A model generated the notes under the pieces. The model was not told the origin of the DNA. It saw nothing but the letters and a program-made list of their open reading frames with translations, and searched no databases. A DNA stretch of 64,000 nucleotides from Haliotis rufescens (taxonomy: Eukaryota), in NCBI RefSeq assembly GCF_023055435.1, contig NW_025963890.1:7378001-7442000 (forward strand). The letters are read 5' to 3'. A program made the translations under genes and the position numbers. How positions within the stretch are numbered: the first letter of the stretch is position 1; each line of letters starts with the position of its first letter. Shown here piece after piece: positions 30,164 through 45,870 of the stretch.

Positions 30164-30315
30164 TCACTTAAAGCAGGTTGAAGGTATCTGTATTCCCCTG
30201 TCCTTAAAGAGCTTGCACCATAGGCGGAGTAAGATCAGGCTTGCAACTACTCTGGGACTGGTTCCATTCCAAGGTTGTCGTTTGGAGGAAAGGACCCTTT
30301 TTCCTCTAGCAAATC
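30164..30315 (-). CDS. Secreted peptide precursor 1 (73 aa), exon 2
   Basis: Acceptor ttgacatatccag|GA; FARGKRVLSSKRQPWNGTSPRVVASLILLRLWCKLFKDRGIQIPSTCFK*; homologous to the 38925 and 44999 exons. Confidence 0.85.
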
Positions 30316-32301
30316 CTGGATATGTCAAGAAAAGCATGCTGAAGGAATCATATGAAGAATGACACACTTACACATCAATATACCCAGGTAGAGACACAAT
30401 TAAGGAATGAAGCAATAGGTACATAAAAAATGCTGGCGGTCAGACGGAATAGTTGCTCTTCAATAGTATAAGCTAATAACAATAACAAGCTAACGACGTT
30501 AAAGCTGGTCAGTCGGTCTTATCGCGTCTTTCCCGACCTGATAGAATCAGTAACAAAACACGATACGGTTTCATGGGGATGGGAAGTATCTATGAAAAGT
30601 GAATGTGGGACACCAGGGGTAGAGGTTTATGAAGACTTGCACAAGAGTGAGTGAGTGAGTATGATTTTACGCCGCTTTTAGCAATATTCCAGCAATATCA
30701 CGGCGGGGGACACCAGGAATGGGCTTCACACATTGTACCCATGTCGGGAATCGAACCCGGGTCTTCGGCGTGACGAGCGAACGCTTTAACCACTAGGCTA
30801 CCCGACCGCCCCACTTGCACAAGAAGCAGGTTATAATGACGTTTGTGAAGATAGTTCGGCGACTCTCGGGTTATTATCCATTTTTAAAGGCTTACGTCGG
30901 TGGAGGTAACAACTTTCGCTTTAGTTTATTATTTTGTAAAGACATGAATTAAATTTCTATTTAATTTAAGGAAGTCAGTTACAACTAGAAGGAGAAAAGG
31001 GGGAGGAAAGAGAAAATTTGCCTTCTGGTAACATCGTGTAATAAACTTATGTTAGGGTTGTTATCAAGAATGACCAGACATCTTAATACTGCTGGGGGCG
31101 GTGGATTAACTAAGTAGTTAAAGCATTCGCTCGTCACGCCGTAGACCCAGGTTTAATCCCCGTGAATATTTCTGGTATCCCCCGCAGTGATATTGCTGGA
31201 CTGTCTCTAAAAGCGGCGTAAACCTCAGTCACTCACTCACTCACTTCAAAGTCCTGTCTTAAACCAAAGAACGAGTGATGAATGTGCTGTGCCCTCATCT
31301 GGTACTATCTCGGGGTTTGATTAACACTGGCTTTATAGTACACGTTTCCTTCTTTCAATCTTAAGGTGTACCGGGGAGAGTTGCATCCCTTACTCGTGCA
31401 AGGATCTGCTAATCGTATGTTCATCCCGGATTCGCCCGGATCAACATCTGCATTCTCGCAATTTTCACTACCTTGTAGTGGTGCACTACCTTCGACACTT
31501 CTGGTTTTTCTTCTCTCAGTACTGTGACACGCTATATACTGTCAACTGAAATACTATCAACGCCGCGTCAAACCCAACTAATTAGAAACTGAGGGCAGTG
31601 GGGTAGCCTAGAGATTAAAACGTTCGTTCGTCACGCCGAAAGCCCGGGTTCGATTCCCTACATGTGTACAATGTGTGAAGTCCATTTCTGGAGTCCCGCG
31701 CCGTGATGTCGCTGGAATATTGCTAAAAGCGGTGTAAAACCATACCTAACCACGTTAGAAGCTAAGCCACGACACAAACGGATGTAATGGGTGTCGCAAT
31801 GAAACCTGTTATGTCAGGTCCGAAAACCCCGCCTTCCGGATGCTTAGAGTTGAACGAATTATCATTACACGAGTCGTTGTTGGAGTAATTCTGAAAGATT
31901 ACCCTTCCCAAAAGTGCGCATTGACTTATATTTGATACTTCCAAAATATTTGTCCCATATTTCATGCCCCTTTTCAAGGCGCCCGAAGACGCCATTTGAC
32001 TAAGATAGTTTGCTGTCGAACTGGAGATGATGAGATAGTCAATTGGTTAAAGCGTTGGCACGAAACACGGGAGGTACAAGTTAAATGTCTGCAACGGTGT
32101 CCCTACCAATGTCTCTAATAGCATTAGAAGCTCACTCACCCACTTGACCATGGTGCTCTAACGGAGATATCCGGAGTTAATTGTTAACTATCTGCAATGT
32201 TGCTCCATGTTATCAACGATGAAATATTCGTCGGATTCCTTGACATACATACACAAACAAACGTAGGAATTTGATTAGAATTGACTTATAATAAGACTTA
32301 C

Positions 32302-32371
32302 CCGAAACACAGCAGGAATGAACTGTCATTAACAGGAACACGAGGGTCAAAGCGTACTTGACTGAGGCCAT
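32302..32371 (-). CDS. Secreted peptide precursor 1, exon 1 (signal peptide)
   Basis: MASVKYALTLVFLLMTVHSCCVS+G|gtaagt; 70 nt, phase 1. Confidence 0.85.
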
Positions 32372-32813
32372 CTTCTTCCGCTCTGATGAAGCAATAACCT
32401 TCACTTGATTTTGAGTTGGTGCGGGCACTGATATAAGAAACAGCAATACAAGTATTAGTGCATGAATTTTATGTGGCTAACGGCGGTGGATGGTTAATGT
32501 AGCCCACACAACATCCGTAGTGTCGGGGTGGGGATGGAAGTTAACCCCTGAGGGGGGGTGGTGTGTCACATCCAAAATTAGCTCTGGTGACGTCAAAACC
32601 TTTTTTTCTCTCCCATGCTTTATTGCGTTCAATAAAGCGTATCTGTCACACCCGTTATATCATCATCCGGATATCGCCCAGTACAACATTACATATATCT
32701 TTATATGTGTTTCACTGCTGTCGAAAATGTCGTGGTCTTATGTGGATGTACAGGGACTTCCATTTGTTCCCGATGGGGTGACGCTGGTGACGCATCTGGA
32801 TTGATGCCATAGT

Positions 32814-45150: not shown

Positions 45151-45742
45151 CTGTAGAGGTAAAAAGAATATATGGCGAATGATTCATGTAAACACGGACC
45201 ACAACTTCAAAACGTTTTATGGAAGACAAATGGAGGACATTCCCAAATCTGACACATTAGTGACGATTATGTTTCTAGGTTTGTCAGCACCATACCCGTG
45301 CTCGTGGTTTTCACCGAAGTGGTAAACGTCTAAGACCTGCATCACTTCGGGCTTACCTCCCACATTAAGATGCCACGCCGTGATATCAATGGAATACTGT
45401 TAAAAGCGGCGTTAAACACTACTCACCCACTCACTCATAAACACATGCTCATTATATATTCAGAATCGTACAATGAACTCTGCTTTTAGCAGATATATTT
45501 TATGATTATGGAAAGGGCGAGTCGCTTATATTTAGTAGAACGCGATCAAGTACTTGTCGGGAATCTTTTAGGTTTAAGTTACATGAAAAAACATGTGAGT
45601 GGGTGTCCCGATCACACGGTTTACAAAATGCACACTAGACTATTATTTTGCTTCATTGGATGAATGATACAATATTTGTCTACAGGATTCCTTGACGTTT
45701 AAGATACATATATTGTAGGAATTTTAACATGGGTGGGCTTAC

Positions 45743-45812
45743 CTGAATCACAGTAGGCTTGAGCGGCCATTAACAGGAACACAAGGGCCACAGCATTCAT
45801 GACAGAGGCCAT
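45743..45812 (-). CDS. Secreted peptide precursor 3, exon 1 (signal peptide)
   Basis: MASVMNAVALVFLLMAAQAYCDS+G|gtaagc; 70 nt, phase 1; not in the ORF track. Confidence 0.85.
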
Positions 45813-45862
45813 TTTCTTCTGTTCTTAGTATAAGCAGTTGGCTTTACTTAATGTGTTGTTTG

Positions 45863-45870
45863 CTTATATA
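45863..45870 (-). promoter_or_regulatory. TATA box of peptide gene 3
   Basis: TATATAAG 51-58 nt upstream of the ATG. Confidence 0.6.

Follow-up and report, generated by a model that had tools for sequence, protein, structure and literature searches.

Three tandem genes on the minus strand of a Haliotis rufescens contig may well encode an undescribed abalone family of prepro-peptides, that is, convertase-processed receptor signals that combine a conserved helix and disulfide loop with a variable N-terminus, a reading that we hold with moderate confidence. The genes lie in a window of 64,000 nucleotides (the whole stretch of DNA analysed; GCF_023055435.1, NW_025963890.1, positions 7,378,001 to 7,442,000), and one of them carries a repeat array that could multiply its products. 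In the following, we describe the gene models and the searches for relatives, and weigh the predicted peptides against other explanations of the cluster.

Gene models in the tandem cluster

The initial annotation had proposed three genes of one architecture, namely a 70-nt signal exon, a phase-1 GT-AG intron and a second exon ending in a W-C-x13-C-F module, and this layout was reproduced in full. The coding parts are as follows (positions in the window):

32302..32371, minus strand: gene 1 exon 1 CDS, signal peptide (23 codons plus 1 nt; hydrophobic core KD7 3.07)
30316..32301, minus strand: gene 1 phase-1 GT-AG intron, 1986 nt
30164..30315, minus strand: gene 1 exon 2 CDS, with G-K-R (furin-type R-X-K-R, possible amidation signal), a second KR and an N-G-T sequon
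30241-30170, minus strand: gene 1 conserved core
29994..29999, minus strand: gene 1 candidate polyA signal ATTAAA, aligning with the AATAAA behind gene 3
41991..42060, minus strand: gene 2 exon 1 CDS, signal peptide
39353..41990, minus strand: gene 2 phase-1 GT-AG intron, 2638 nt
38925..39352, minus strand: gene 2 exon 2 CDS, repeat array and terminal Cys-loop module
39030..39344, minus strand: gene 2 array of seven units of 45 nt, each encoding KR and 13 further residues that include an N-x-S sequon
39005-38934, minus strand: gene 2 core
38533..38924, minus strand: gene 2 3' UTR, split by a dispersed repeat of ~250 nt (about 38840-38588); family homology resumes at 38587-38533
45743..45812, minus strand: gene 3 exon 1 CDS, signal peptide (KD7 3.49)
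45151..45742, minus strand: gene 3 phase-1 GT-AG intron, 592 nt
44999..45150, minus strand: gene 3 exon 2 CDS, with an RR site and the conserved core at 45076-45005

The predicted products measure 73, 165 and 73 aa for genes 1, 2 and 3, with stops ending at 30164, 38925 and 44999, and the splice sites agree with the earlier proposal in all three genes (donor GTAAG; acceptor CAG/GATTT at 30315, 39352 and 45150; phase 1), as does the spacing of 13 residues between the two core cysteines. The joined frames are free of internal stops in all three genes. The resemblance among the genes exceeds chance, with E-values in mutual tblastn comparisons ranging from 1e-6 to 8e-10 (exon 1) and from 2e-10 to 5e-17 (exon 2). 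The three gene models look real, since no indel occurs in any of the six pairwise coding-block comparisons whereas gaps occur in all 12 flank comparisons, these comparisons sharing sequences and hence not being independent. A six-frame scan for W-C-x(10-16)-C-aromatic returned four matches in 64 kb, the three family genes and one unrelated, and no further paralogue beyond the known copies was found in the window.

The dibasic sites described earlier are likewise present (two KR/RR sites in gene 1, seven in gene 2 and one in gene 3). For gene 2, the description of a short pro-piece proved wrong, and a polyprotein had been missed: exon 2 holds seven KR-led units of 15 residues, six of them flanked by KR on both sides and the seventh forming the start of the terminal peptide. 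The KR is kept in 7/7 units and in 3/3 units of an orthologue from Haliotis cracherodii, and every one of the seven units has a sequon. Six of the seven variable positions among the units are non-synonymous, so selection on the 13-residue peptides is not established.

Searches for relatives

The only homologue found (NCBI, UniRef) is an uncharacterized H. cracherodii protein of 104 aa, an orthologue of gene 2 that carries no name or function. It is identical to gene 2 at 25 of the first 28 residues and at 22 of the 24 core residues, and has the same splice junction and 15-residue KR unit, although it holds three units against seven in gene 2; as a spliced database protein it matches the gene 2 splice model independently. 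It was the one match among three candidates in a protein search with gene 2 exon 2, the sole member recovered among 894 candidates with a seven-row family alignment, and one of two matches in a profile search of 1,835,955,588 representatives, the other (E 4e-4) being a Cys/Val-rich repeat protein that was rejected as chance. These homology searches covered annotated proteins, and on that basis the lineage-specific origin proposed earlier is no more than a possibility. Gene 1 exon 2 returned no candidate, and for genes 1 and 3 no orthologue turned up in the databases, not even among the annotated proteins of H. cracherodii; the short spliced genes of this family are thus clearly under-annotated, and with two of the three lacking a database counterpart the cluster illustrates how annotation misses short two-exon peptide genes.

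The earlier statement that the family is unrecognised was upheld, and the cluster stands as a tandem secreted-precursor family without a named relative. Pfam gave nothing for five of the six exon peptides (the sixth drew one sub-threshold, repeat-driven match), nor for the H. cracherodii orthologue or a broken fourth exon described below, and a PDB sequence search gave no match below E 0.6. A literature search, whose coverage leaves out subscription journals, matched none of six family sequence motifs and found no paper on the family by title or abstract start. None of four family motifs was found in an abalone sequence in the searched part of the supplement of an H. discus hannai ganglia peptidome, nor in its Table 3 (PMC6523705). 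As a lead only, all Atlas feature neighbours with an assigned family were peptide-hormone precursors, with scores of 0.82-0.84, below the 0.9 threshold, which no Atlas score reached.

Several known systems share parts of this layout. Drosophila Sex Peptide and Dup99B have two exons, a signal peptide, a variable N-terminus, a conserved C-terminal disulfide loop and tandem copy-number turnover, and the published Sex Peptide consensus, W2-C3...C17, is also W-C-x13-C (PMC10327216). Membership was rejected, as by eye only three of the seven residues listed there as conserved in >97% of Sex Peptides are matched (W2, C3 and C17; not G8, P9, G12 or G13); Sex Peptide is described as lineage-restricted and confined to Drosophilinae (PMC10327216), and the abalone precursors, unlike it, combine dibasic processing with a long helix before the loop. 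The Sepia SPalpha/SPbeta precursors and Aplysia attractin share the signal peptide, dibasic multi-product processing, disulfides, N-glycosylation and paralogous precursors (PMC3484142). The Sepia precursors differ in length (about 250 aa) and in the unrelated sequences of the printed peptides, and attractin differs in its three disulfides and single product per precursor (PMC3484142).

Molluscan Cys-loop neuropeptides resemble the family in placing a terminal two-Cys loop after a dibasic site (PMC5996578). The contention that the spacing of 13 departs from known ones holds for the families compared: that source defines allatostatin C by x6, and on the scallop peptides printed in it we counted x8 for elevenin and GGNamide, and x4 for conopressin (PMC5996578). 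Allatostatin C was rejected on its x6 spacing, even though its Phe/Tyr after the second Cys has a counterpart in the C-F of all three genes and the orthologue. A peptide of the PKYMDT (proctolin-like) precursor also has an aromatic-Cys at its start and Cys-Tyr near its end (PMC5996578); at motif level it was set aside, being an amidated Cys-x12-Cys against x13, and the abalone products have neither a PKYMDT motif nor a terminal amidation Gly. Myomodulin (xxxMLRLamide) was likewise rejected, as the core reads LLRL or LLRI followed by W-C, without Met, Gly or a basic site, and so was allatostatin B/WWamide, the gene 2 units ending in W-S without Gly and just two of the seven starting with Trp, ten residues away. 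Gene 2 resembles pedal peptide/orcokinin-type precursors (H. discus hannai PP-A; PMC6523705 Table 3) in that it would release several non-amidated 13-residue peptides between KR sites. Its units differ in their sequons and in standing ahead of a Cys-loop module, and pedal peptide A, raised by an SGFA resemblance, was rejected by eye against that table for want of an (F/L)(D/E)SI start and a GF(A/M/V)-type end.

The predicted peptides and what they may do

By analogy with established secretory biology, the signal peptide would be removed after residue 19 or 23 and a prohormone convertase would cut at KR or RR. The N-terminus has the features of a signal peptide: a basic residue (in two of the three genes) precedes a hydrophobic core (KD7 3.07-3.49), and small residues occupy -3/-1 after position 19. 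The two core cysteines would then pair; genes 1 and 3, like the orthologue, have an extra Cys at precursor position 21, and gene 1 has another at 20, so that this pairing is probable rather than certain. Whether Cys21 belongs to the product depends on which of the two signal sites is cut. The released peptide, of 42-47 residues, is predicted to form a long helix through the first Cys and to be closed by the loop, its conserved 24-residue core likely serving as the recognition surface while the N-terminus is free to vary. Within the core D, G, Q, I, S and W are invariant, while peptide charge ranges from 0 to +7, an invariance that partly reflects recent common ancestry (dS 0.3-0.8). Hydrophobicity is strong in the stretch before the first core Cys, a sequence that would suit contact with lipid or a partner no less than with a receptor. 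We rejected a transmembrane reading, the hydrophobic run being about 12 residues long and containing Arg.

AlphaFold placed a helix at 20-38 with pLDDT of about 75, in a weak model (mean pLDDT 63.6, pTM 0.32, three sequences). Foldseek returned no match for this low-confidence 49-residue query, and among 48,161 chains VIA gave a best Z of 3.4 and none of at least 5, a result that with so weak a model shows neither a new nor a different fold. The amphipathicity of the helix proposed in the initial annotation is modest: the best 11-residue hydrophobic moments are 0.66-0.80, and between 21 and 77 of 1000 shuffles matched or exceeded the best window. "Diversifying", in the sense of positive selection, is unsupported, as dN/dS between paralogues, taken over exon 1 and the core together, is 0.53, 0.54 and 0.69, not significantly below 1 in any of the three pairs. 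For the core dN/dS is 0.45, 0.51 and 0.25; only the comparison of genes 2 and 3 has bootstrap support (0.004), and the other two are not significant; core dN of 0.14-0.30 against signal dN of 0.22-0.25 makes the mature core as conserved as the signal.

A possible though doubtful alternative is that these are host-defence or membrane-active peptides. The helix would then enter microbial membranes, with the disulfide loop lending it stability, while microbial pressure diversifies the cluster and gene 1 is the most active. The hydrophobic moments would suit such a role, as would the charge of the gene 1 peptide (+5 as a 37-mer or +7 as a 43-mer). The antimicrobial reading put forward earlier is weak as a family trait: gene 1 alone is strongly cationic, the peptides of gene 2, gene 3 and the orthologue carrying 0, +2 and +1. 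The N-terminal Gln noted for the gene 1 peptide goes with its +5 form and needs cleavage at the second KR, which is missing from the paralogues; the dibasic site that aligns with theirs is the first one. A taxonomically restricted multigene family with a conserved signal, pseudogenes and a dibasic site is the usual pattern for antimicrobial peptides of molluscs, for instance the myticalins, which also share the phase-1 intron and the KR site (PMC5577615). As described there, however, the mature myticalin is Cys-free, linear, cationic and hypervariable, and KR and an anionic propeptide come after it at the C-terminus, an order and a pattern of conservation that are reversed in abalone, and myticalin was rejected as a relative. 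The abalone precursors lack an acidic pro-piece, and no kB-like site was found near the genes with a consensus pattern. A 2025 review names molluscidin, macins and protein-derived fragments as the antimicrobial peptides of abalone (PMC11767717).

That the products have no signalling role and form part of a secretion (mucus, gamete coat, acrosome or shell matrix) is unlikely; in that case the helix would bind lipid or a partner protein, and the glycosylated repeats would serve as a spacer or as a tag for solubility. The hydrophobic helix core and the sequons of all seven gene 2 units fit such a role; abalone does make small convertase-processed partner proteins such as FITZAP (PMC6952181), and Sex Peptide also organises lipid microcarriers (PMC10327216). 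A spacer, however, would not need KR in every unit, and FITZAP (abalone sp6), which is described as anionic (-6 to -16) with an N-terminal poly-aspartate, was rejected as a relative on a composition that the peptides of this family do not share (PMC6952181); none of the nine FITZAP supplement files searched held a motif match.

The gene 2 polyprotein is the most informative feature of the cluster. On the favoured reading of receptor signals, a 45-nt segment spanning the KR site together with the ancestral peptide's first 13 residues was tandemly multiplied, to seven units here and three in H. cracherodii, so that the precursor should also release several near-identical 13-residue peptides, possibly N-glycosylated; judged from its sequence, gene 2 could thus yield seven peptides instead of one through a multiplied cutting site. 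Its cleavage sites are plain KR without Arg at P4, a pattern that suggests PC1/PC2-type enzymes. A PC2 has been described in abalone (PMC7144994). Release from a gland, as a water-borne cue or reproductive allohormone, appears somewhat more likely than a classical ganglionic neuropeptide, and the lack of a motif match in the H. discus hannai ganglia sequences searched counts against a major ganglionic neuropeptide. Dibasic-processed, disulfide-bonded and N-glycosylated molluscan pheromones offer a precedent (PMC3484142). A more specific version, to which we give little credence, sees a recent abalone pheromone or allohormone system, Sex Peptide-like but independent, with gene 2 marking the birth of a multi-copy from a single-peptide precursor and with its units, whose number (7 versus 3) and sequence differ between species, perhaps carrying species identity in a broadcast spawner.

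Restricted secreted-peptide families are common in molluscs, so the existence of one more would not surprise a specialist, and the value of the present family rests on its expression and function. Were the signalling reading true, it would add a peptide system without a name to a mollusc genus that is farmed and in part endangered, and the short, synthesisable products would make receptor and behaviour tests direct. Gene 2, lying beside single-peptide paralogues, provides a comparative case for the origin of multi-copy precursors, which is usually inferred from the end state alone.

Promoters, a broken fourth exon and cluster turnover

The earlier claim that 3' UTRs and intron segments are paralogous was substantiated for the 3' UTRs and intron ends, and extends to the 5' flanks; the promoters, too, are paralogous, a feature absent from the initial annotation. 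The elements concerned, and a further copy of exon 2, are:

32562..32570, no strand assigned: gene 1 promoter palindrome TGTGNCACA, 191 nt before the ATG
42330..42338, no strand assigned: gene 2 promoter palindrome, 270 nt before the ATG
45966..45974, no strand assigned: gene 3 promoter palindrome, 154 nt before the ATG
42118..42125, minus strand: gene 2 TATATAAG box
45863..45870, minus strand: gene 3 TATATAAG box
44686..44976, minus strand: broken fourth exon 2 copy and its 3' UTR, beginning 22 nt past the gene 3 stop

The TATATAAG box reported upstream of genes 2 and 3 (42125, 45870) was confirmed, and gene 1 has a version with one mismatch. The palindrome TGTGNCACA, spotted by eye, occurs three times in the window, a chance-level count (mean 2.51), and is notable solely for where it lies ahead of each ATG. 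Consensus-pattern scans for kB, CRE, AP-1 and NRSE-like sites gave nothing common to the three genes.

The broken exon, overlooked in the initial annotation, keeps an acceptor-like AG/GA; over 72 nt, two 1-nt deletions and a stop disrupt its ancestral frame. The AATAAA on which gene 3 would rely (44691) lies within this copy. Unequal crossing-over appears to drive turnover of the cluster and would account for both the mosaic gene 2 and this fourth exon. That only one gene works, the others and the repeat array drifting neutrally as decaying duplicates, is very improbable: the dN/dS values given above, the eroded TATA box of gene 1 with a satellite just upstream, the repeat inserted in the gene 2 3' UTR and the one exon 2 copy already broken would fit it, but in all three genes frames, splice sites and both core cysteines have stayed intact although dS has reached 0.3-0.8 and the flanks are rich in gaps, a second species (H. 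cracherodii) also has an intact gene 2, and the broken copy gives a local picture of what decay looks like. Copies of a dispersed repeat coincide with three marginal tRNA matches in Rfam, which we read as SINE heads.

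Gene models and coding constraint

The three minus-strand gene models proposed in the initial annotation (genes 1, 2 and 3, with start codons at 32371, 42060 and 45812) hold at their coordinates, and together they make up a real abalone family of precursors for secreted peptides. In each, a 70-nt first coding exon is joined in phase 1, through a GTAAG donor and a CAG/GATTT acceptor, to a second exon closed by a W-C-x13-C-F module, giving products of 73, 165 and 73 aa across introns of 1986, 2638 and 592 nt, with no internal stops in the joined frames. A six-frame scan of the 64 kb with a loose module pattern returned four sites, three of which are these genes. 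Paralogy among the three extends from the exons to the 5' flanks, intron ends and 3' UTRs, and their promoter alignments were equalled by 0, 0 and 1 of 200 random windows. This structure stood, but the initial annotation had overlooked that gene 2 encodes a polyprotein and appears mosaic, as well as a fourth copy of exon 2, a promoter palindrome and an additional Cys at precursor position 21 (genes 1 and 3 and P0001, the database orthologue of gene 2).

P0001, a 104-aa vetigastropod sequence labelled 'uncharacterized protein [Haliotis cracherodii]', was the sole homologue over four protein searches. It is identical to gene 2 at 25 of 28 N-terminal residues and at 22 of 24 residues of the core (the conserved C-terminal segment of exon 2); because the N-terminal identity spans the predicted junction, the splice model predicted for gene 2 is independently matched. 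The window itself is probably from a Haliotis species. Genes of this family are under-annotated in databases.

No gap is needed to align exon 1 or the 72-nt core in any of the six pairwise comparisons. In the 70-nt flanks, 12 of 12 comparisons show internal gaps, between two and six each and for the most part of a length not divisible by three; the two sets share sequences and hence are non-independent. Substitution tests support selection more weakly than this gap pattern: core dN/dS was 0.45, 0.51 and 0.25 for the three paralogue pairs (bootstrap fractions with pN >= pS of 0.159, 0.079 and 0.004, in the same order), and exon 1 pooled with the core gave 0.53, 0.54 and 0.69 (0/3 significant). 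Between genes 2 and 3, exon 1 differs at a single synonymous site (dN/dS 4.0 on a dS of 0.06), which we interpret as recent exchange and not positive selection.

Repeat expansion, predicted products and probable cluster turnover

Seven 45-nt units occupy 39344-39030 of gene 2, all starting with KR and all containing an N-x-S sequon, the seventh forming the start of the terminal peptide; P0001 has three units, two with the sequon. Since the unit aligns with the dibasic site and first mature-peptide residues of genes 1 and 3, the array probably arose by intragenic duplication. Six of the seven variable unit positions alter the amino acid, so unit variation does not support constraint on the 13-mers between KR sites.

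The gene 2 cleavage sites are plain KR. The first gene 1 site is R-G-K-R, which we take to be furin-type; as it carries Gly before the dibasic pair, cleavage there may free a short N-terminal peptide that is then amidated. Predicted peptides past the last dibasic site (either site in gene 1) have 37 or 43, 47, 42 and 46 residues in genes 1, 2, 3 and P0001. Their best 11-residue hydrophobic moment, spanning the first Cys, is 0.66-0.80 (attained by 21-77 of 1000 shuffles), and for gene 1 exon 2 AlphaFold, with three sequences, models residues 20-38 as helical and adds a second, short helix at 45-48 (mean pLDDT 63.6).

The fourth copy of exon 2 (minus strand, from 44976 downward) begins 22 nt past the gene 3 stop, and when 7184 AG sites are ranked its acceptor region falls with those of the three genes, matching gene 1 at 27/40 positions. 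Its core, a better match to genes 1 and 2 than to gene 3 in alignment, is disrupted by two 1-nt deletions and an ancestral-frame stop. The acceptor-like site is intact, and the phase 1 frame behind it (44843-44976, minus) runs for 43 codons without a stop, encoding a different sequence richer in Cys, so that use as an alternative exon spliced from gene 3 exon 1 is possible; a Pfam search of the copy gave no match. Gene 2 has the look of a mosaic, with a 5' flank closest to gene 3 (0.86) and an acceptor region and core closest to gene 1 (0.81, 0.85). Both features would fit unequal crossing-over.

Known families and proposed mode of action

Pfam, PDB and fold searches (the last with a low-confidence model) found no match for the cluster peptides. 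Cys spacings printed in PMC5996578 exclude allatostatin C, elevenin, GGNamide, conopressin and the PKYMDT-precursor peptide, bearing out the initial remark that C-x13-C is unlike the first two. Myomodulin and WWamide (PMC5996578), pedal peptide A (PMC6523705), myticalin (PMC5577615) and FITZAP (PMC6952181) each have defining features that the abalone peptides lack; a motif search of nine supplement files of the FITZAP paper (PMC6952181) reported no match. Drosophila Sex Peptide comes closest as a works-like case, and its consensus as printed in PMC10327216 likewise contains W-C-x13-C; just three of its seven near-invariant residues are matched, and the likeness is treated as analogy, not homology. 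No description of the family came up in the open-access papers searched, and the peptides could still be listed in supplementary peptidome or transcriptome tables. The family is apparently undescribed so far and belongs to a well-known general kind. Many molluscs have peptide families of restricted range, which limits how surprising the cluster is; the gene 2 repeat expansion and directly testable predictions sustain interest in it.

Precursor layout, cleavage motifs, frame conservation and one orthologue are seen directly. We propose that the signal peptide would be removed, a convertase would cut at the dibasic sites, the two core cysteines would pair as a disulfide and a helix-plus-loop peptide would be released, gene 2 additionally yielding 13-mers. 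The peptides may act by receptor-mediated signalling, a function to which we give even credence, for three reasons: particular core residues are kept although charge is not, signalling precursors are laid out as KR-punctuated repeats, and all Atlas neighbours having a family are peptide-hormone precursors (0.82-0.84, a lead only). Within signalling, a glandular cue is somewhat likelier than a ganglionic neuropeptide, since a search with four motifs in part of the H. discus hannai ganglia supplement (PMC6523705) turned up no abalone sequence, and disulfides and N-glycans are described in PMC3484142 as protection for molluscan pheromones in seawater; the preference is weakened by abalone PC2 being mainly ganglionic (PMC7144994).

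Host defence is an unlikely role: the gene 1 peptide has a net charge of +5 or +7, and those of gene 2, gene 3 and P0001 only 0, +2 and +1, leaving the initial antimicrobial reading with a weak case. Less likely again is a non-signalling role in a secretion, for which a KR site in every gene 2 unit would be unnecessary if the repeats served as a spacer. Decay of duplicates, set against the frame conservation, is very improbable.

Promoters, repeats and other features

A TGTGNCACA palindrome, preceded by TAATTT, lies 154-270 nt upstream of each ATG and is absent elsewhere in the window, its count being at chance level:

32562-32570, upstream of gene 1
42330-42338, upstream of gene 2
45966-45974, upstream of gene 3

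Gene 1 also has a perfect, CRE-like TGACGTCA palindrome (32588-32595), located some 20 nt upstream of its TGTGNCACA copy and absent at the matching place of genes 2 and 3. An inverted-repeat element is common to 42348-42472 and 2840-2996 (96% over 126 nt), the former copy lying just upstream of the TGTGNCACA palindrome of gene 2. A 42-bp satellite of about 70 copies (32814-35764, 93% matches), which gives long spurious ORFs, lies upstream of gene 1, its end about 440 nt from the ATG. Marginal Rfam tRNA matches on dispersed-repeat copies (29073-29144, 30736-30807 and 46672-46743) are probably tRNA-derived SINE heads; one such copy sits inside the gene 1 intron.

Other features of the window

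8242-9456, plus strand: ankyrin-SOCS-box gene, its ankyrin repeats and SOCS box lying in a single uninterrupted frame of 404 codons
11898-12746, minus strand: frame with helix-turn-helix matches
16060-16569, plus strand: coiled-coil exon with a basic C-terminal tail, Pfam matches sub-threshold only
about 19536-24602, plus strand: PEX13 exons, with a Peroxin-13 N-terminal domain and a split SH3 domain
59367-59699, plus strand: open frame, no Pfam match
61245-61550, plus strand: open frame, no Pfam match

No connection of the ankyrin-SOCS-box gene or PEX13 to the peptide cluster was found. We take the 11898-12746 frame to be, probably, a decayed Tc1/mariner-like transposase; 61245-61550 resembles, by its motif, a tyrosine-recombinase retroelement fragment, and 59367-59699 may be an exon of a further gene.
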